DNA of 63,354 bases, counting the filler. It is 7 parts of 7 records of this genome, joined end to end, with 100 filler letters (N's around TTAATTAATTAA, not from the genome) between each part and the next. Parts side by side here need not be neighbours in the genome. Positions count along the whole stretch, not along the records: positions 47,480 to 59,632 come from SRR20825010_2540; 6 more parts are not named here. One strand, written 5' to 3'. Position numbers and translations under genes: made by a program. Positions 20,104-59,732 of this stretch are shown piece after piece (position 1 is the stretch's first letter; every line of letters begins with the position of its first letter). The notes beneath the pieces were generated by a model, which was not told where the DNA came from, made no database searches, and saw nothing but the letters and a program-made list of their open reading frames with translations.

Positions 20104-20203
20104 NNNNNNNNNNNNNNNNNNNNNNNNNNNNNNNNNNNNNNNNNNNNTTAATTAATTAANNNNNNNNNNNNNNNNNNNNNNNNNNNNNNNNNNNNNNNNN
20201 NNN
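20104..20203. other. artificial contig linker
   Basis: N44-TTAATTAATTAA-N44, stop codons in all six frames. Confidence 0.98.
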
Positions 20204-23396: not shown

Positions 23397-23496
23397 NNNN
23401 NNNNNNNNNNNNNNNNNNNNNNNNNNNNNNNNNNNNNNNNTTAATTAATTAANNNNNNNNNNNNNNNNNNNNNNNNNNNNNNNNNNNNNNNNNNNN
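23397..23496. other. artificial contig linker
   Basis: N44-TTAATTAATTAA-N44. Confidence 0.98.
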
Positions 23497-26836: not shown

Positions 26837-26936
26837 NNNNNNNNNNNNNNNNNNNNNNNNNNNNNNNNNNNNNNNNNNNNTTAATTAATTAANNNNNNNN
26901 NNNNNNNNNNNNNNNNNNNNNNNNNNNNNNNNNNNN
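26837..26936. other. artificial contig linker
   Basis: N44-TTAATTAATTAA-N44. Confidence 0.98.
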
Positions 26937-41409: not shown

Positions 41410-42084
41410 TCAACTCATCCCCTCAATAAAACTGATCACTAGAGCGCCTAACTGCCGGGTGTTATATGGATTCCCATTACTATTGAGAATGCCAATTTTT
41501 AGCTCACTGGCTAACGCTCTTAATTCAGGTTTAGCGACTGGTGATAATTCACCATTTACATACACCTCTATAGAGCCATTCTCCAGCTCTCTAATCTTAC
41601 GATTGGCGTATTCTACAACTCTGATCGCTTTGAGCTGGGAGGCTGGCTTGGAGGGCCGAATCAGCTTTGATAAAGAAATGGAGGATTTTCCTTGAGAGTT
41701 TTCGGCTCCCATAAGGTTTATTGCCTCAGAGACACCACCATCAAATAGCATTTCAATTTGCATTTCCTCTGTATTCACACGAAGTATCATGACACGATCA
41801 ACCTCGTGAAGAGTTCTAGGGTTAAACGATATATGGCCGCCCAAGCCCATCATTGCTGTTGTTTTTACGGAAATACGGTCCCCATCTCCGCTCACAACAT
41901 CATAACCTTTTTGATTCACTTCCGTAGCCATCTGCCCATTGGTAATTAACGCAGAGTAAAGCTCCCCGATCCGCCCAATAAGATGGCGCAATTCCGTAGG
42001 AGGCACCCCCCAAAGCAACTCCCTTTCAAACCAAGTCATTGCTTCACCCAACGATTGAATAAGCTGCATTTGAGTTAATGCCAA
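41410..42084 (-). CDS. hypothetical protein, PD-(D/E)XK nuclease-like (DUF6998-like)
   Basis: IGRIGELY...KGYDVV...ISVKTT motif; AAGGGG RBS before TTG; AT-rich relative to the contig. Confidence 0.65.
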   Translation of the reverse strand: MALTQMQLIQSLGEAMTWFERELLWGVPPTELRHLIGRIGELYSALITNGQMATEVNQKGYDVVSGDGDRISVKTTAMMGLGGHISFNPRTLHEVDRVMILRVNTEEMQIEMLFDGGVSEAINLMGAENSQGKSSISLSKLIRPSKPASQLKAIRVVEYANRKIRELENGSIEVYVNGELSPVAKPELRALASELKIGILNSNGNPYNTRQLGALVISFIEGMS

Positions 42085-42861: not shown

Positions 42862-42961
42862 NNNNNNNNNNNNNNNNNNNNNNNNNNNNNNNNNNNNNNN
42901 NNNNNTTAATTAATTAANNNNNNNNNNNNNNNNNNNNNNNNNNNNNNNNNNNNNNNNNNNN
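42862..42961. other. artificial contig linker
   Basis: N44-TTAATTAATTAA-N44. Confidence 0.98.
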
Positions 42962-47379: not shown

Positions 47380-47479
47380 NNNNNNNNNNNNNNNNNNNNN
47401 NNNNNNNNNNNNNNNNNNNNNNNTTAATTAATTAANNNNNNNNNNNNNNNNNNNNNNNNNNNNNNNNNNNNNNNNNNNN
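47380..47479. other. artificial contig linker
   Basis: N44-TTAATTAATTAA-N44. Confidence 0.98.
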
Positions 47480-47508
47480 GAATTAGCCTGAAAGGCGTAA
47501 TCCAACAT
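47480..47508. repeat. partial REP-like palindrome at contig edge
   Basis: GAATTAGCCTGAAAGGCGTAATCCAACAT resembles the body of GTAG-type REPs. Confidence 0.4.
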
Positions 47509-47539: not shown

Positions 47540-48232
47540 TCAGCGTTTGCGCGCCAGTTTTTCCAGGCTCATCAGGGTATCCAGATAATTCACGAAGTGT
47601 TCCAGATACGCGGGTGACAGCTCGCGCAGGGTTTCGATGGAGCGGGTCACCAGCCGGTGGGAGTTGAGCGGGCCGGCGTCACTGGGCGTTTGGGTAATAG
47701 CATCGTCGATGCGCTGGCGAGCCTGGTGTGCCTGCCGCTGGCTGCGCAGCTGGCGCAGGGCGCTCAGTTCCCGTTGTCGGGGCGGCGGCGGTGGGGTGCT
47801 GGCGCCATTGTCTGCCAGAACCTGAGTTTCCTGTTGCTTCAACATGCTTGCCAGTGCGTTGTGCTCTTGCGGGTCCTCATCCGCTGGTGCGGCACGGTAG
47901 GCCTGCTGCAAGGGCGCAAACGGTGACGGGTTTGCCGTCTGGCGCCGCCGTAGCAAAAAGCGGAACTGGCCAGGATTGTCGGTGGGTTCCCCGGCACGTT
48001 GCAGGGTTTCCCGTGCCTGATTCAGCGCGTCTTCGTACTCGGTTAGTTGGCTAGCCAGTTTGCCCTGTGTGCCGATGGGGGGCTCAGGCAGGGCAGCCAG
48101 CCGCTGGGTCAGGCTGTCCAGGTAATGGAACTGCACCGGATCGAAACGTTCCGCGCCTTGCTCACGAAGGGCGGTTAGCCGCTCCAGCAGGGCGCCGAGT
48201 GTGGGCGAGGGCGCGGCGTGATCAGGGTGCAT
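47540..48232 (-). CDS. zorG: DUF2894 protein (Zorya type III ZorG-like)
   Basis: GA.RFDPVQFHYL, RELSALRQ, AGPLNSHRLV.RS...LRELSPAYL.HF..Y.DTL; last gene of the operon. Confidence 0.8.
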   Translation of the reverse strand: MHPDHAAPSPTLGALLERLTALREQGAERFDPVQFHYLDSLTQRLAALPEPPIGTQGKLASQLTEYEDALNQARETLQRAGEPTDNPGQFRFLLRRRQTANPSPFAPLQQAYRAAPADEDPQEHNALASMLKQQETQVLADNGASTPPPPPRQRELSALRQLRSQRQAHQARQRIDDAITQTPSDAGPLNSHRLVTRSIETLRELSPAYLEHFVNYLDTLMSLEKLARKR

Positions 48233-48860
48233 CGGCTTCCTCGCTTTGCCTTGGCACCGTGGTCAGCTCCACCCGGCGGTTACGGGCACGGCTGTCGGCG
48301 TCGTTGTTGGGGGCCACCGGCTGGTTGTCGCCGAAAGCGGCGGCAAACACCTGGTCCGCCGGCATGCCCTGTTCGATCAGGGTGCGGGTGACGGTGAGTG
48401 CTCGCTGCGCCGACAGCCCCCAGTTATCCGCGTAACGGCCGTTGCCCCGGTTGATGGGCAGGTCGTCGGTGAAGCCGCTGACCATGAGCATGTCATCGTG
48501 CTGGCTGAGGAATACCTGCAGTGGTTTCACCAGATCGCTTAGCAGGGCTTCGCCTTCCGGTTGCAGCTGGTCGGAGTTGAGCTGGAACAGCACGCTGCCA
48601 CTGATGCCGATGCGGCCGTTGTGGAAGGTTACTCGACCGCTGGCTAACGGGTCGGCCAGCGCTTCTTCCAGTGCCATGCGGCGCTGCTCTTCGGCGAGGC
48701 GTTTGGCTTTTTCCTGCTCCAGGGACTGGCTTAATTCCAGCTGGATACCGATTACCCACACCAGTAACAGCACCAGAATACCCACCAGCGCGGCCATCAG
48801 GTCCGAGAAGATGGCCCAGACCGGCGAGGCCTGGGCATCGCTGTCGTGTAATTCGTCCAT
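48222..48860 (-). CDS. zorB: MotB/OmpA-family protein (ZorB-like)
   Basis: WAIFSDLMAAL single TM with the conserved Asp; VLF, GFTD, NWGLSAQRA, RNRRVE. Confidence 0.85.
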   Translation of the reverse strand: MDELHDSDAQASPVWAIFSDLMAALVGILVLLLVWVIGIQLELSQSLEQEKAKRLAEEQRRMALEEALADPLASGRVTFHNGRIGISGSVLFQLNSDQLQPEGEALLSDLVKPLQVFLSQHDDMLMVSGFTDDLPINRGNGRYADNWGLSAQRALTVTRTLIEQGMPADQVFAAAFGDNQPVAPNNDADSRARNRRVELTTVPRQSEEADAP

Positions 48861-51106
48861 CAGTTGACCTCGGAAGCCGGGCGCTGGCTATCCTGCGCGG
48901 GCGCCTCGCTATGGCGCAGGCTGGCCAGGGCATCAATCACGTCTTTCTGTGAGGCCATGCTCAGCTCGATTACCTCGCGGGCCTGTTCCACGTAGTAACC
49001 CAGTTGCTCGTCGGCGCGGGCGGACGATTTCTCCAGCGAGCTTTCTACTTGCTGCAGGTTGTCCAGCAGGGTGTCGTTGGCACTGCTGAATACCTGCACG
49101 GCAGCGGTAAAGGCGTCGCTGAGGCTGGCCACTTCGGCGGCGCTGCCGGTGACATCGCCGGCCACCTGATTGAGGCGGGAGGCCTGTTCACTGACCTGCC
49201 GGGAAAAGGTGTCGCTGACCTGGCTCAAGGTTTCGCTGGAGGTGCGGATCAGGGTATCGATGGCGTCGCGCTGGGCACTGGCGGCGGCTTGCTGGCCACT
49301 GAGCAGGGTGTCCAGCTCGGCCATGATGCGGCGGCGTTCTTCCAGCAGTTCGTTGTCCCGTTCGCTGCTGTGGGTCATTTCCTCGCGCAGGCGGGTGATC
49401 ACCTCCGCGGCCGCTTTGGGGGTCTGCGAAGCGGTTTCGATCAGTCGCGTCATCGGTGCTTCCAGGGCGGTGCCCAGGCGGCCCAGATGCTCAGTGACCG
49501 TGGTTTCCAGCCCGGCCAGGCGCTCGCTGGCGGCATCGCCGCGGGCCGCTTCCTGATCACGCAGGGTACTGAGTTGTTCGCCCAGTTGCTTGATCAGGCT
49601 GTCCATGCCGGTTTGCTGACCGCTGAGTAACCCGGCGGCGCTGTCACGGAATTCGCTGTTGTGCTCGTGCAGGGCGCTACGGATCTCGCTGACCAGCGTG
49701 GCCACGGTTTGTTGCTGTTCGCTGAGACCGGTTTGCCAGTGCTGGATGGCTTGTTCGGTGCTGGCCTGGAATTGCCCGGCGATGGCAGCGAACTGTTTTT
49801 CGCTCTGTTCAGCCACGGTCTGCTGGGTGCGTTGTACCTGCTGGAGCAGTTCCGCGCCGCTGGCCCGGTGGACTTCCAGCCCGGCGTTCCAGCTGTCCAT
49901 GGCCTGGCGGGTGGCGGCCTGGAATTGCTCGGTAATGGCGGCCAGTTGTTGTTCGCTGGCGTTGCCCAGTTGTTGCTGGGTGTCGCGGACCTGTTGCAGC
50001 AGGGTGTCGCTGTTGTGCTGGAACTGGTCGTGGTGGGCGGCCAGGGACGTGCTGATGTCGTTGACCAGCCGGGCGCTGGTTTGCTGATGCTCGGCGAGGC
50101 CGGCGCGCCATTGTTCGGCGGCGTGTTCGGTGGTGTCGCGGAAGCGCTCGGTGAGGGTGCCGAGTTGCTGTTCGGTGATGGCGTTGAGCTTTTCGTGGGT
50201 GCCCTGAACCTGCTCGCTGAGGCTGGCCAGGGATTGGGCCATGATCGGCTGTACGCTCTCGGCGGCCAGGCGGCTGCTATCGGCCAGGGTGTCACGCAGG
50301 GAATCGCCCACGGAGCGCGCCAACCCTTGGTATTGCTCCTGGAGTCCGTTGTGGAAGGCTTGCTGATTGCCGGTGAGCTGCTCGCCCATTTGTTCCATGC
50401 GCCCGGTGAGGGTCTGCAGGGCGGTGACCAGTTCCGGGAAGGCTTGTGACTGGCTTTGCAGGGCCGCGTAGGCGGCTTCACGTTGGTGATTCAGGGAGAA
50501 GCGGTACAGCTGGCCATCCACGGCGTCGTCCAGATGGCGGGAGACCTCCATGCGGTCGCGACGGCACAGGGTGGCGGTGAGGCCCAGCATGGCGGAGGCG
50601 GCTACCCCGGCAATGGAGGTGCCAAAGGCCAGGCTCAGGCCGGCGATGGGCGCCGACAGGGCGCTGCGAATGGCGGTCAATTCACTGCTGCCATCCAGGG
50701 CGGTGGCGGCGCCTTTCAGGGTGACGATCATGCCTACAAAGGTGCCGAGCAGGCCGAGCATGACCAGCAGGCCGGTGAGGTAAGGGGTCAGCACCGGGCC
50801 TGGCAGGGCGGCGGGCTGGCCGTCGACGCGGCGTTGTACAGCATTGCGCAGGGTGCGGGGCAGGTCGGTGAGCCAGCGGGTCAGGGAGTCCCGGCCGGCA
50901 TCGGGCTCGGGGAGCTGCTGCAGTTGTTGATCCAGCCGGGCGGTGTCGCGGCGGTAGCGTAGCAGTTCCAGAAAGCCCAGCCCGTAGACGGCGGCGATCA
51001 GCAGGGTAACGGTGAGGGCCACCGGATTGCGCAAAAAGGTGGCGCCAATCCAGATAACGGCCACGGCGCCAAGGGCAAAGGGCAGAGCAAACAAAAAACG
51101 TCTCAT
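48860..51106 (-). CDS. zorA: MotA/ExbB-like membrane protein with long helical tail (DUF802, ZorA-like)
   Basis: N-terminal TMs, LLVMLGLLGTFVGM, GLSLAFGTSIAGV, then >500 aa of Q/E/A-rich helical repeats. Confidence 0.85.
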   Translation of the reverse strand: MRRFLFALPFALGAVAVIWIGATFLRNPVALTVTLLIAAVYGLGFLELLRYRRDTARLDQQLQQLPEPDAGRDSLTRWLTDLPRTLRNAVQRRVDGQPAALPGPVLTPYLTGLLVMLGLLGTFVGMIVTLKGAATALDGSSELTAIRSALSAPIAGLSLAFGTSIAGVAASAMLGLTATLCRRDRMEVSRHLDDAVDGQLYRFSLNHQREAAYAALQSQSQAFPELVTALQTLTGRMEQMGEQLTGNQQAFHNGLQEQYQGLARSVGDSLRDTLADSSRLAAESVQPIMAQSLASLSEQVQGTHEKLNAITEQQLGTLTERFRDTTEHAAEQWRAGLAEHQQTSARLVNDISTSLAAHHDQFQHNSDTLLQQVRDTQQQLGNASEQQLAAITEQFQAATRQAMDSWNAGLEVHRASGAELLQQVQRTQQTVAEQSEKQFAAIAGQFQASTEQAIQHWQTGLSEQQQTVATLVSEIRSALHEHNSEFRDSAAGLLSGQQTGMDSLIKQLGEQLSTLRDQEAARGDAASERLAGLETTVTEHLGRLGTALEAPMTRLIETASQTPKAAAEVITRLREEMTHSSERDNELLEERRRIMAELDTLLSGQQAAASAQRDAIDTLIRTSSETLSQVSDTFSRQVSEQASRLNQVAGDVTGSAAEVASLSDAFTAAVQVFSSANDTLLDNLQQVESSLEKSSARADEQLGYYVEQAREVIELSMASQKDVIDALASLRHSEAPAQDSQRPASEVN

Positions 51107-51906
51107 GGGGTGGTGCTTTCCTTGTGATCAATGGTGGCGAACGTGGAGCCGGTGTTTGCGTCTGAGGACGCGGCGGTGGCTGCGCCCAGCAGGCCCAGAA
51201 TGGGCTCCTGACGGGCGTCCAGTTCAGCCAGCAACAGCATTTGAATTTCCTGGCAGAATTGGGCGAGCCAGCCGTTGGCGGCCATCCAGTCCTGCGGTGG
51301 TGTGTGTTGGCCCTGCTGCCAGAGCGTGCGGTAACGCTTTTCCAGAAAGGCGGGCAGGGCAGTAAAGCAGCGGCGTACGTAGGTTGAGAGGCTGTGCTCG
51401 AATACCGCATCCAGCTCGGCCAGCCGTGCCAGCTCGGCACTGTGTGCGGTGAGCTGGCGGCGGGTGCGCAGGCGCAGGTTGGTCAGAGCGGCGATCATTT
51501 GTCGCTGGTGGGCCTGATGGAAGCGCTCGTAGGGGCCAAAGGCGGGGCGCTTGTCTGCCGGGGTGTCGCGATTGACGGCGGGCAGGCTGATCACCGAAGC
51601 GGCCTGTTTGCCGGCGAAGCTGTGACTCAGGTTCTCCAGCAGGGTGTTACGGGTTTTCAGCAGGTCGGCCTGCAGGGTGTCGGTGATATCGTCCCGGGGG
51701 GTAAACGGGCCGTTGGGGCGGTGCTGGGTGGCGGCATCCAGAGCAATGGTGTCGGACAGGTCAAACAGGCGCCCCAACCGTTCGGCAAAGCAGGGGTGCG
51801 AGGACGCGGCGGCTTTCGGGTCCAGGCTGGCGAGCAGCTGTACCAGCCGGCTGCCGGCGGGGCCGGTTTGCGCGGGTGTTTGCGTCCTATGCATACTGTT
51901 GTCCAT
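51103..51906 (-). CDS. zorF: DUF3348 protein (Zorya type III ZorF-like)
   Basis: SRLVQLL, FAERLG..D..DTIAL, LARLAELDAV, WL..F..E.Q.LLLAELD.R..PI.GL. Confidence 0.8.
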   Translation of the reverse strand: MDNSMHRTQTPAQTGPAGSRLVQLLASLDPKAAASSHPCFAERLGRLFDLSDTIALDAATQHRPNGPFTPRDDITDTLQADLLKTRNTLLENLSHSFAGKQAASVISLPAVNRDTPADKRPAFGPYERFHQAHQRQMIAALTNLRLRTRRQLTAHSAELARLAELDAVFEHSLSTYVRRCFTALPAFLEKRYRTLWQQGQHTPPQDWMAANGWLAQFCQEIQMLLLAELDARQEPILGLLGAATAASSDANTGSTFATIDHKESTTP

Positions 51907-51956
51907 GGCGACTGCGGATACGGTGAAAACGGGCCTGTGGTGCCCGCAGCAATGTG

Positions 51957-52017
51957 CGGCCTTTCCCGATTAGAATGGATCGGTGGGCCAGCCGCCCATT
52001 CTAATCGGGAAAGGCCG
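51957..52017. repeat. perfect 22-bp inverted repeat upstream of the Zorya operon
   Basis: CGGCCTTTCCCGATTAGAATGG (51957-51978), 17-nt spacer, CCATTCTAATCGGGAAAGGCCG (51996-52017). Confidence 0.9.
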
Positions 52018-52093
52018 GCGATGATAATGCGCTGGTCGGTTGAAAGATGGGTTGCGAAATCTGTCGTAGGGCCGGCACGCAAAGGAGTGCGAC

Positions 52094-53243: not shown

Positions 53244-54812
53244 TCAAATTTGCGATTCAATCGGCAGCCACGACAGTACCCATACCTTGATGCGTTGCCA
53301 GCGAGACGTCTCCGGATCGTGATCCACCGTCAATGGCGTGTCGCTGTCTGCATCGCTCGCTTGCCACTGCAATTCGTTCTCATCATTCAGGCTGACATGC
53401 CAGGCTGAATCGTCGCTGATCCAGCTGGAAAACAGCTGGCTGAGTTGTTGATTCAGCGATTCGCTTTCAATCAGCAACCCGATTTCCGTATTTTGCAAGA
53501 TCGAACGGCCATCCAGGTTCACCGAACCGATGAAGGTGCGATCGTCATCAATGACAAAGGTCTTGGCGTGCAGGCTGGCGCGGGACTTGCCCTTAAACCA
53601 GTGAATGCGTTCCTGCTGCCCGGCTTCGGCACGCAGCTCCCACAGGCGGATGCCATTTTCCAGTAGCGGTTTTCGGTAATTCACATAGCCGCTGTGCACG
53701 ATGGCCACGTCGGTGGTGCTCAGGGAATTGGTCAGGATGTCGACTTTAACGCCACGATCGGTCAATGCTGAAAACAGTGCCACGCCGGCATCTCCGGGGA
53801 CAAAATAGGCAGAACTGATTTGCAGCCGCTGTTCGGCGCTGTCGAGAATGGTCTTCAGTGAAGCGCCGAGATAATCGTCGCGGCTCACCGTGTCCCGTGC
53901 GGTGGCTTTTTCCGGTGGGTCGGCATAAAGGGTAGCCTGCCCCCAGTCCAGGGAGACTTTCCCTTCTACAAGCCGGCGGCCCAGGCTGGAGCCGGAGAGG
54001 GCGTTGGCAAATTCGCTGTTCGTCTGCTCATCCAGAAAGCTGTGCAGGGTGCGCCGCAAGGTGGCCAGATCCATGTCCGCATCGTCGGCGTCAAGAACAT
54101 GATTGATCGGCACCGCGGCGGTCGTGTTCCAGTACAGATCAAAACTGGCAACACCGTCAGGGACAATCTTGCCCACGGCCATCACGTCGACATCCTGAAA
54201 ATCCACGTTGGTATTGGAAAAATACTCGTCGCCCAGATTGCGCCCGCCAGTGATCATGACGCTACTGTCCGCCACCATCAATTTGTTATGCATGCGATGG
54301 TTGGTGCGCCCGAAATGTGTGGCCATTTGAAACGCCCGGCTAATGCCGCTGCGGGCAGCAACCGGATTGAAAATGCGGATATGAATGTTGGGGTGTTGTT
54401 CGAGGGTGGCAACGAGCGGCTCTGCCACACGTGTGCCCAAATCGTCGACCAGAAGACGCACCCGAACGCCCCGGTCTGCTGCTTCCAGCAGTTTGGCGAT
54501 GATGATGCGCGATGAGGTGTCGTCGGAAACAATATAGTACTGCAGGTCCAGCGAGGATTGGGCCACTTCAATCAGGGCAACGCGTGCCACAAAAGCAGAC
54601 AGCCCCTCGTGCAACAGGTAAAAGCCGGACTGATTTTCATGCTCGGGGTTTTTGTGAAGCTGTTCCAGCCCTTCGACAATAGGGCCGTCAGCAGGACTGG
54701 GAAGCCCTACGCTGGCGGGGCGGTCGCTCGGGTCATAGCTGGGCTGTGCCTGGCAAGCCGTGGAGAGCAAGGTAACCAGTAATAGCCCGATCAGGGGTGG
54801 CATATGAGGCAT
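53244..54812 (-). CDS. phospholipase D family lipoprotein (ClsC/YmdC-like)
   Basis: two HKD motifs (HNKLMVAD, HAKTFVID); AADRGVRVRLLVDD; lipobox LSTAC. Confidence 0.9.
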   Translation of the reverse strand: MPHMPPLIGLLLVTLLSTACQAQPSYDPSDRPASVGLPSPADGPIVEGLEQLHKNPEHENQSGFYLLHEGLSAFVARVALIEVAQSSLDLQYYIVSDDTSSRIIIAKLLEAADRGVRVRLLVDDLGTRVAEPLVATLEQHPNIHIRIFNPVAARSGISRAFQMATHFGRTNHRMHNKLMVADSSVMITGGRNLGDEYFSNTNVDFQDVDVMAVGKIVPDGVASFDLYWNTTAAVPINHVLDADDADMDLATLRRTLHSFLDEQTNSEFANALSGSSLGRRLVEGKVSLDWGQATLYADPPEKATARDTVSRDDYLGASLKTILDSAEQRLQISSAYFVPGDAGVALFSALTDRGVKVDILTNSLSTTDVAIVHSGYVNYRKPLLENGIRLWELRAEAGQQERIHWFKGKSRASLHAKTFVIDDDRTFIGSVNLDGRSILQNTEIGLLIESESLNQQLSQLFSSWISDDSAWHVSLNDENELQWQASDADSDTPLTVDHDPETSRWQRIKVWVLSWLPIESQI

Positions 54813-54895
54813 GGTGGAGTCATCGCAGCAAGTCTGCGATTATCAAAACGCAACAGTGCGATAATTTCAAACTGAACTTACACAGGGATCGGGTC

Positions 54896-56083
54896 ATGCT
54901 CAAGCAAGGGATGCTGGCAGTCGTTACAGGATTGATGGCTGGCGCCGCACAGGCTGATTTTTTTCAGGATTACATGATCGATCCGGAAGACGGCATGCTG
55001 GACGGCAGTCGGTATCTTTCCGAGGTGCCGCAAGGTTTCTTGCCGATCCCGATGGTGATTACAGAGCCCGCGGTGGGCGCCGGCCTGGGCATGGGCGCGG
55101 TGTTTTTCCATGAAAGTGAAGAACAAAAGAAACAGCAAAGAAACGCTCAGAGTGCGGCTATCATTCCTCACAATATCAGTGTCGTAGGGCTGGGCGCGAC
55201 AGAGAATGGAACACGTGCAGCGGGACTGGGACATATAGGTTTCTGGCATGACGACCGTATTCGCTATCGTGGTTTTGCCTTGTTTCCCGATTTGAATCTG
55301 GACTTTTATTCCCTGGGAGGACGCGACCTGCGTGATCCCGTAGAGCTGAATGTGAAAGGGCCGGCGGCCGTGCAGGAATTAAAATTCCGATTGGGTGAAA
55401 GCCGCTGGATGCTGGGAGCAAGGCAGGTTTACCGACAGGTCGAACTGTCCCTGGAAGAAAATATCTCGTTGCCCAATCCCCGGCTTGAACAGGCGGTGAA
55501 TACGTTTTTGCAAAACAATCTGGGGGATAAAATTAGCACCTCAGGGCTGGGCGTGCTGGCTGAGTATGATAGCCGGGATAATCCTCTGGCTCCTCAGTCC
55601 GGGCTTTATTATGCGGGTAATTATGTGTGGTACGGGGACAGTGTTGGCAGTGATATCAACTTTGCCAGTTATACGTTGGAGGGCCTGAATTACTGGAACG
55701 TTAACGAGCATTTCAATTTTGCCCTGCGTCTTCAGTATGACGGTGTCGATGTGAGCGACAGTACCCGGCTGCCTCCCTACGTGCTGCCTTATGTGGATAT
55801 GCGCGGCATTCCGGCTGTTCGCTATCAGGGTAAGGCGGTCGCGGTGGCAGAAGTGGAGGCGATCTGGAAAGCCAGTCCTCGCTGGCGGTTTAACTTTTTT
55901 GGTGGCGGTGGACGTGCCGCAGAAAGCCTTTCGGATTTGTCAGAGGCTGAAGTAGCCAATAGTTACGGTTCCGGGTTTCGCTATCTGATCGCTCGCCGGT
56001 ACGGGATGACGATGGGCATTGATATTGCCCGGGGGCCGGAGGATACCGCCTGGTATATTCAGGCGGGGTCCAGCTGGCGCTGA
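54896..56083 (+). CDS. BamA/TamA-like (bacterial surface antigen) outer-membrane protein
   Basis: signal peptide AAQA; ITEPAVG; YDSRDN; RGIPAVRYQG; YGSGFRY; C-terminal W; no POTRA domains apparent. Confidence 0.75.
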   Translation: MLKQGMLAVVTGLMAGAAQADFFQDYMIDPEDGMLDGSRYLSEVPQGFLPIPMVITEPAVGAGLGMGAVFFHESEEQKKQQRNAQSAAIIPHNISVVGLGATENGTRAAGLGHIGFWHDDRIRYRGFALFPDLNLDFYSLGGRDLRDPVELNVKGPAAVQELKFRLGESRWMLGARQVYRQVELSLEENISLPNPRLEQAVNTFLQNNLGDKISTSGLGVLAEYDSRDNPLAPQSGLYYAGNYVWYGDSVGSDINFASYTLEGLNYWNVNEHFNFALRLQYDGVDVSDSTRLPPYVLPYVDMRGIPAVRYQGKAVAVAEVEAIWKASPRWRFNFFGGGGRAAESLSDLSEAEVANSYGSGFRYLIARRYGMTMGIDIARGPEDTAWYIQAGSSWR

Positions 56084-59632: not shown

Positions 59633-59732
59633 NNNNNNNNNNNNNNNNNNNNNNNNNNNNNNNNNNNNNNNNNNNNTTAATTAATTAANNNNNNNNNNNN
59701 NNNNNNNNNNNNNNNNNNNNNNNNNNNNNNNN
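59633..59732. other. artificial contig linker
   Basis: N44-TTAATTAATTAA-N44. Confidence 0.98.

Follow-up and report, generated by a model that had tools for sequence, protein, structure and literature searches.

The operon and its class

The window analysed here, a stretch of 63,354 nucleotides joined from contigs of Alcanivorax, an oil-degrading marine bacterium, carries four minus-strand open reading frames (ORFs) that match the genes of a Zorya type III anti-phage system. These are zorG (51103-51906), zorA (48860-51106), zorB (48222-48860) and zorF (47540-48232), which encode proteins of 267, 748, 212 and 230 amino acids. Adjacent genes overlap at each junction. The genes zorG and zorA share ATGA at 51103-51106, zorA and zorB meet in TGATG, where base 48860 is common to the zorA stop and the zorB start, and zorB and zorF overlap by 11 bp (ATGCACCCTGA, 48222-48232). 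An earlier sequence-only reading of this DNA had reported four overlapping minus-strand genes at these coordinates, and rereading the ORFs and all three junctions gives the same result. The order zorG-zorA-zorB-zorF on a single strand is the canonical arrangement of Zorya type III, which the methods of Hu et al. 2024 (PMC11946911) give as DUF3348-zorA-zorB-DUF2894.

The names of the two accessory genes differ between sources. In the text of Payne et al. 2021 that deals with them, DUF3348 proteins are called ZorF and DUF2894 proteins ZorG, and PADLOC-DB has these names reversed. Both zorFABG and zorGABF appear in Hu et al. 2024 (PMC11946911). The PADLOC-DB names are used here (DUF3348, ZorG; DUF2894, ZorF).

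All four proteins match the PADLOC profiles for type III (ZorG3, ZorA3, ZorB3 and ZorF3) strongly, and each scores far better on its own type III profile than on other models. ZorG matches ZorG3 at 2.7e-128 and Pfam DUF3348 (PF11828) at 5.2e-76, with 256 bits against a cut-off of 25. ZorA matches ZorA3 (PDLC00648) at 1.5e-244 with 811.9 bits, three more ZorA3 models at 4.2e-242 to 8.2e-173, and Pfam DUF802 at 5.3e-28 in three stretches. ZorB matches ZorB3 (PDLC00651) at 6.6e-107, with residues 2-209 falling on profile positions 3-210 of 215, as well as Pfam OmpA at 5.9e-19 and the NCBIfam equivalog NF006547, a 'hypothetical protein', with 353.7 bits (cut-off 194). ZorF matches ZorF3 at 8.5e-51 and Pfam DUF2894 (PF11445) at 7.5e-54, with 183.5 bits against a cut-off of 25. 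These scores bear out both the class call made from sequence alone and the four Pfam families foretold with it (DUF3348, DUF802, OmpA and DUF2894), all of which are found above their cut-offs.

PADLOC models for types I and II reach at best 1.2e-14 on ZorA (with ZorA1) and 1.2e-20 on ZorB. None of the NCBIfam ZorA subfamilies 1, 2 and 4, which cover these types, attains its cut-off on the window protein (47.6 bits against 100 for ZorA_2, and 29 against 190 and 19.7 against 500 for the others), and NCBIfam has no name for the type III system. All four genes are full length and translationally coupled, each belongs to one of the four type III families, and purifying selection acts on them.

Seven contigs make up the window. 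They are joined by N44-TTAATTAATTAA-N44 linkers at 20104-20203, 23397-23496, 26837-26936, 42862-42961, 47380-47479 and 59633-59732, so genes on opposite sides of a linker are not genomic neighbours. The zor genes lie on the contig at 47480-59632, and the zorF stop is 60 bases from its end, in keeping with the earlier remark that the downstream flank is cut by the contig edge. The genomes of relatives were used for comparisons, the nearest being G001, whose ZorA is 99% identical to that of the window. After zorF in G001 comes a convergent BCCT transporter gene, so that no fifth gene has been lost past the contig edge. Between these two genes is a nested palindrome of approximately 125 nt that is whole in G001 (L022, 6929-7080). 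The window contig ends inside this palindrome, which is probably responsible for the assembly break at 47480. No neighbour other than the four zor genes recurs across 17 loci (12 from other lineages, four from the genus and one from another family of the order), in a coarse test whose greedy ORF caller took wrong-strand frames in some GC-rich loci.

The sequence-only reading correctly described the system class as one already known. Payne et al. 2021 (Nucleic Acids Research, PMC8565338) named Zorya type III and, in the accessible part of the paper, count 6,401 such systems compared with 7,742 of types I and II. The class was tested there once in E. coli, with the type III operon of Stenotrophomonas nitritireducens DSM 12575 cloned in strain BL21-AI. 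With the cloned operon, at least one phage of the five used formed fewer plaques, and cultures did not collapse with phage PVP-SE1 at a multiplicity of infection (MOI) below 0.1 (PMC8565338). Types I and II have been solved by Hu et al. 2024 (PMC11946911) and Mariano et al. 2025 (PMC11890865), whose accessible text merely mentions type III. Partial texts of other reports describe changes in type III transcripts on phage exposure in Burkholderia cenocepacia (PMC12584637) and Stenotrophomonas maltophilia (10.64898/2026.01.02.697320), and list type III among the defences of Variovorax (PMC11953036). No mechanism for type III is given in the accessible text of the literature that names the system or its DUF families.

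Compared with the systems of Payne et al. 2021, the window operon has the same four gene families in the same order on one strand, with overlapping genes and a long ZorA tail. It differs in its host, Alcanivorax, and in being a core, syntenic locus of its genus. The operon is an ordinary instance of an already described class. What is new here is that it is fixed and syntenic throughout the genus, that the unit of four genes is complete, and that a dimer of ZorG and ZorF is predicted and can be tested. The best-supported reading, to which a probability of roughly 0.8 can be given, is that a complete and intact Zorya type III operon lies on the Alcanivorax chromosome, with a ZorAB motor and with ZorG and ZorF as its output module.

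Motor subunits and accessory proteins

The hydrophobic segments of ZorA are confined to residues 1-185. This membrane head is followed by a tail of 563 residues that is rich in Ala, Gln, Leu, Ser and Glu and is acidic, with an isoelectric point of 4.7; the sequence-only reading had claimed a helical tail of more than 500 residues. The tail carries three DUF802 repeats (residues 311-370, 384-424 and 435-494), with repeat scores of 118 and 91 compared with a shuffled maximum of 58. In two genomes of the genus, the ZorA frames are 692-695 amino acids long and their matches skip roughly residues 400-445, which suggests that they have one repeat fewer. This putatively helical region matches the long cytoplasmic ZorA tail expected of ZorAB motors.

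ZorA has only faint ties to proteins outside the Zorya families. Its head scores 13.3 bits on Pfam MotA_ExbB (E 0.07), below the cut-off of 22.9, and a distant common ancestry with MotA_ExbB stators is presumed. No match to ZorA is found in the PDB by phmmer at E 0.01, and no MotA, ExbB or TolQ family is listed for it in NCBIfam at the same threshold.

ZorB consists of an N-terminal transmembrane (TM) helix and a C-terminal OmpA-like peptidoglycan-binding domain. The motif FSDLM at residues 18-22 places Asp20 in the sole hydrophobic segment of the protein, so the TM aspartate is kept as had been reported. Asp20 aligns with Asp26 (YADLM) of the E. coli ZorB chain 8qyd_F, and the alignment is gap-free up to that residue. 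For the E. coli type I system, the accessible text of Hu et al. 2024 (PMC11946911) states that ZorB(D26N) is a dead motor and that every truncation of the ZorA tail abolishes defence.

The type I system of E. coli, in which ZorA5B2 is combined with ZorC and ZorD (Hu et al. 2024, PDB 8qyd), resembles the window operon in having a MotB-like ZorB with a TM aspartate (Asp26 there, Asp20 here) and a peptidoglycan-binding domain, together with a ZorA that has a long helical cytoplasmic tail. However, the window operon has neither ZorC nor the nuclease/helicase ZorD, and its ZorG and ZorF are unrelated helical proteins. The similarity of the ZorA proteins is also at the level of profiles only (1.2e-14), with no phmmer match to the solved chain. 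DUF802 repeats are seen in the type III tail, which is the one tail type that was scanned.

ZorG is a soluble protein that AlphaFold2 models as an all-helical bundle, with a predicted local distance difference test (pLDDT) score of 90 and a predicted template modelling (pTM) score of 0.83. ZorF is also helical, with a mean pLDDT of 72 and a pTM of 0.41. The N-terminal three-helix part of its model is confident, and the C-terminal half mostly scores 56-72. Foldseek finds nothing for ZorG in the PDB at E 0.001. The top Z scores in a wide VIA-align search are 7.2 for ZorG, to dynamin/Mx stalks with a root-mean-square deviation of 6.0-8.9 over 170-172 residues, and 8.0 for ZorF, to a designed three-helix bundle over 72 residues; both are levels common for helical proteins. 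A protein atlas offers no usable match to ZorG outside DUF3348.

Pfam identifies no enzyme domain in ZorG or ZorF, and fold and sequence searches recover no recognisable fold. These results uphold the earlier claim that the sequence does not reveal the effector mechanism. No longer, fused forms of ZorF were found, which the search tool rates as weak evidence, and the best 150 of 1,662 representatives of the ZorG family are all 235-318 amino acids long. Extra Pfam domains are absent from 85 of 85 ZorG homologues and from the 120 listed of 238 ZorF homologues.

ZorG and ZorF are predicted to pair as a heterodimer in which the C-terminal half of ZorF meets a conserved face of ZorG. Three runs each give a complex score of 0.88, compared with 0.40 for the best of three controls. 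Of 78 solved complexes, 51 attain the mark used for such scores, as do two of 108 mismatched pairs. The runs show at least 76% contact agreement, with partner pLDDT values of at least 67. Because profile searches find no solved relative of either protein, the score is not memory of a structure.

The predicted interface comprises ZorF residues 127-143 and 178-230, including the nearly invariant Leu189, Leu194, Ser206, Pro207, Tyr209, Phe213, Leu220 and Leu223. On the ZorG side it comprises residues 18-60, 79-98, 158-187 and 226-245, which include the FAERLGRL motif, Asp166 and Pro235-Ala242. Thirteen of the 25 conserved positions of ZorG lie at the interface, which accounts for 64 of its 267 residues (Fisher p 0.0013), as do eight of 21 in ZorF, where the interface accounts for 45 of 230 residues (p 0.031). 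Other conserved positions fall outside the interface, in ZorG at Gln134, Arg135, Arg145, Arg149, Glu228 and Arg232 and in ZorF within the N-terminal bundle, and these could serve another partner.

Inheritance and function

Within its genus, the operon behaves like a core, vertically inherited and clade-fixed locus, not a mobile add-on. ZorA is present in all 24 Alcanivorax species genomes and in five of 17 other genera of the order, or 29 of 41 genomes in all. DUF3348 is likewise found in 24 of 24 genus genomes and DUF2894 in 23, the exception being a genome of 82% completeness in which the zor contig breaks off directly after zorA. In contrast, PDC-M34A, a candidate defence gene near zorF in G001, occurs in one of the 24. 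In ten of ten genus genomes examined, the genes keep the order zorG-A-B-F and occupy one syntenic site beside CitMHS and imelysin genes, with a phospholipase D (PLD) gene in between in eight.

Among the genus genomes compared, protein identity to the window is 83-100% for ZorB, 64-99% for ZorA, 63-99% for ZorG and 39-96% for ZorF, and the zor values drop together with those of the flanking genes (89-100% for CitMHS and 60-99% for the PLD protein). Ratios of nonsynonymous to synonymous divergence (dN/dS) against four relatives are 0 to 0.05 for zorB, 0.08-0.10 for zorA, 0.09-0.17 for zorG and 0.17-0.23 for zorF. In three of the four relatives, dS for the zor genes falls mostly inside the range of the flanking genes; in the nearest it is 0.03-0.11, above the 0.01-0.05 of the flanks. 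GC content at third codon positions is 0.71-0.80 in the zor genes and 0.58-0.82 in the other genes measured. The high GC content of the operon is therefore poor evidence of transfer, and a horizontal origin based on composition was rejected. One assembly (G013, a single contig of 3.96 Mb) has two copies of the operon with identical flanks (L015 and L016) near the contig ends, which looks like an overlap of assembly ends and not a true duplication.

At the class level DUF3348 is sparse, occurring in six of 401 genomes and five of 309 genera. A second family has it in 33 of 120 genomes, which represent 18 of 58 genera. Among the 24 itemised genera of this family with at least two genomes, a tally that leaves out 28 further genera, DUF3348 is present in all genomes of six, absent from all genomes of 15 and mixed in three. 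All 12 loci fetched from the second family and one other have the order zorG-A-B-F. In the flanks of ten of these loci, two of 109 ORFs match PADLOC at 1e-10; one is an ATPase fragment and the other a DEDDh exonuclease, and both matches are generic. DUF3348 is not found in any of 50,697 phage records. It occurs in 110 of 72,556 plasmid records, and each of the 25 that were listed is a replicon between 366 kb and 2.6 Mb in size.

The solved E. coli type I system suggests how the operon might operate. Five ZorA and two ZorB subunits would form an inner-membrane, proton-driven, stator-like motor with Asp20 of ZorB as its proton-carrying residue. The OmpA-like domain of ZorB would anchor this motor to peptidoglycan when a phage disturbs the envelope, and the 563-residue acidic tail of ZorA could relay the signal into the cytoplasm over a distance of some tens of nanometres. 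The ZorG-ZorF dimer may be a soluble output module, recruited or released by the ZorA tail, in the position that ZorC/ZorD or ZorE hold in types I and II. As the dimer lacks an enzyme domain, it most likely acts by binding, either to block or to recruit a host factor, and would not cut DNA itself. This is the weakest step in the proposal.

Several points weigh against reading the locus as a defence operon with ZorG-ZorF as its output. The 5:2 stoichiometry, the function of the tail and the role of ZorG-ZorF would all be transferred from type I or deduced from the models. That the operon defends this host and genus against phages is something we infer, so that the earlier description of an intact defence system with an unreadable effector holds for intactness and for the effector, and goes beyond observation for defence in Alcanivorax. 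The experimentally tested system comes from another family, and the window ZorA is 34-42% and its ZorG and ZorF are 28-46% identical to their counterparts in the fetched type III loci of other lineages, values that refer to those loci and not to the tested Stenotrophomonas operon. The link from ZorA to types I and II is weak and made by profiles only (ZorA1 at 1.2e-14, ZorA_2 at 47.6 bits against 100, no PDB match by phmmer).

The predicted dimer and the distribution of the operon call for similar caution. The complex score is the model's own confidence in proteins folded without alignments, and seven of 44 blind neighbour pairs also pass the mark. Folding alone can account for the conservation of residues at the interface. 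The locus is also unlike a typical defence gene, being present in 24 of 24 genomes at one site and outside any defence island, with no DUF3348 match in the phage records and with listed plasmid matches that are all to replicons of 366 kb or more.

Three other explanations were weighed. The first, which is unlikely, keeps the operon as a defence system and makes ZorG-ZorF a regulator or plug, with the ZorAB channel itself killing or arresting the cell by proton leak (abortive infection). Killing by proton leak was first proposed for Zorya and is echoed by Payne et al., whose discussion, as far as it is accessible, also proposes ZorF and ZorG as regulators of ZorAB (PMC8565338). In favour of this explanation, both accessory proteins lack an enzyme domain and an informative fold match, and the tested system protected liquid cultures at an MOI below 0.1 (PMC8565338). 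However, the long ZorA tail is kept and its repeats are conserved, which fits signal transfer to the cytoplasm better than a simple leak.

Also improbable is that the operon is chiefly a housekeeping envelope machine, in which a peptidoglycan-anchored proton motor senses or repairs envelope damage and phage protection is a side effect. Such a role is favoured by the presence of ZorA and DUF3348 in every genus genome and of DUF2894 in all but one, compared with one for PDC-M34A, and by the same chromosomal site in ten of ten genomes, a promoter kept at 11 of 11 loci, purifying selection and mostly flank-like dS. In the second family, 21 of the 24 itemised genera are all-or-none for DUF3348. The operon has no defence neighbours, is absent from phages, and the listed plasmid matches are megaplasmids or chromids. 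Yet the sole published experiment shows phage protection (PMC8565338), and transcripts change on phage infection in Burkholderia (PMC12584637) and Stenotrophomonas (10.64898/2026.01.02.697320) according to the accessible parts of these reports. A phenotype outside phage infection is not described in the accessible literature on the system or its DUF names, and class-level sparsity (6 of 401 genomes) is unlike that of an essential envelope function. Conservation alone does not exclude defence, because some defence systems are core in some clades.

Core-gene-like inheritance across the genus does call into question defence as the sole role of the operon. It is conceivable, if doubtful, that Zorya type III is a clade-fixed, constitutively kept envelope-surveillance motor with a non-enzymatic ZorG-ZorF output, and that its role in Alcanivorax is primarily envelope maintenance or stress signalling. 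If so, phage protection would be one consequence among others. Type III roughly equals types I and II combined in number, but among the Zorya types it alone has no recognisable effector. The locus offers a testable lead in the form of a confidently predicted ZorG-ZorF dimer with named interface residues.

The third explanation, a flagellar MotAB or ExbBD/TolQR-type stator beside two unrelated neighbours, can be set aside as highly improbable: in a plain sequence search the OmpA-like domain of ZorB is nearer to MotB/PomB chains (8.2e-15) than to E. coli ZorB (7.2e-6), the conserved aspartate in a single TM helix is shared with MotAB/PomAB and the ZorA head gives its faint MotA_ExbB signal, but the sub-threshold level of that signal, the type III scores of ZorA and ZorB, the 563-residue tail, the lack of a MotA, ExbB or TolQ listing in NCBIfam, the occurrence of all four genes together in 12 of 12 other-lineage loci and the failure to find flagellar or Ton/Tol genes nearby stand against it. 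The type III profile scores exclude a flagellar or Ton/Tol stator, and the favoured reading remains that of an intact Zorya type III operon.

Promoter region and flanking sequence

A consensus scan and an alignment of loci from the genus identify a predicted promoter for zorG on the minus strand at 51996-52042. It consists of TTATCA (52027-52022), an 18-nt spacer and TAGAAT (52003-51998). All 11 aligned genus loci share this 47-nt block almost unchanged, whereas the non-coding DNA around it is not conserved to this degree. A perfect 22-nt inverted repeat at 51957-52017 has one arm (51996-52017) that coincides with the -10 part of the promoter block and another (51957-51978) that is confined to the subclade of the window. 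The repeat has no third copy in the window and is found only at this locus in four genus genomes. Possible explanations for it are an operator or a local inverted duplication. For the predicted 5' leader, folding is no stronger than in shuffled sequences (z -0.5), and Rfam gives 0 matches on the window.

Contigs from RNA libraries of two studies cover 29 of 30 bins of the operon in X2 and X3; for X6 and X7 the figure is 15 of 30. Neither strand nor start nor level can be read from such contigs, and they could stem from DNA carry-over. The uncovered bin in X2 and X3 (51770-51934) proves nothing, because it adjoins the inverted repeat, where contigs break.

Pfam and PADLOC searches of the eight ORFs upstream of the operon agree with the sequence-only reading that no integrase or other defence gene is visible there, with the exception of a generic PLD similarity of a 522-amino-acid neighbour to DrmC. 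This neighbour is the PLD gene at 53244-54812, which encodes a two-domain phospholipase D/cardiolipin-synthase-like protein. It was rejected as a DISARM DrmC, since it scores 80.2 bits on the NCBIfam equivalog against a cut-off of 133 and its best matches, also sub-threshold, are cardiolipin synthases. It was also rejected as a type III effector, being below every NCBIfam cut-off and not beside the operon in two of ten genus genomes. The PLD gene and a divergent gene of the Omp85 family together span 53244-56083, and their called starts overlap by 16 nt.

On the other side of the operon in G001, approximately 4.6 kb beyond zorF, a DUF5343 and HEPN_Swt1 pair (L022, 1835-3059) matches the PADLOC candidate system PDC-M34 (1.8e-48 and 4.6e-38). 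Elsewhere in the window, the end of the fourth contig (41000-42861) has a low GC content of 0.45, compared with 0.55-0.60 in other parts, and carries a DUF6998 gene (41410-42084) together with an ORF that belongs to no family.

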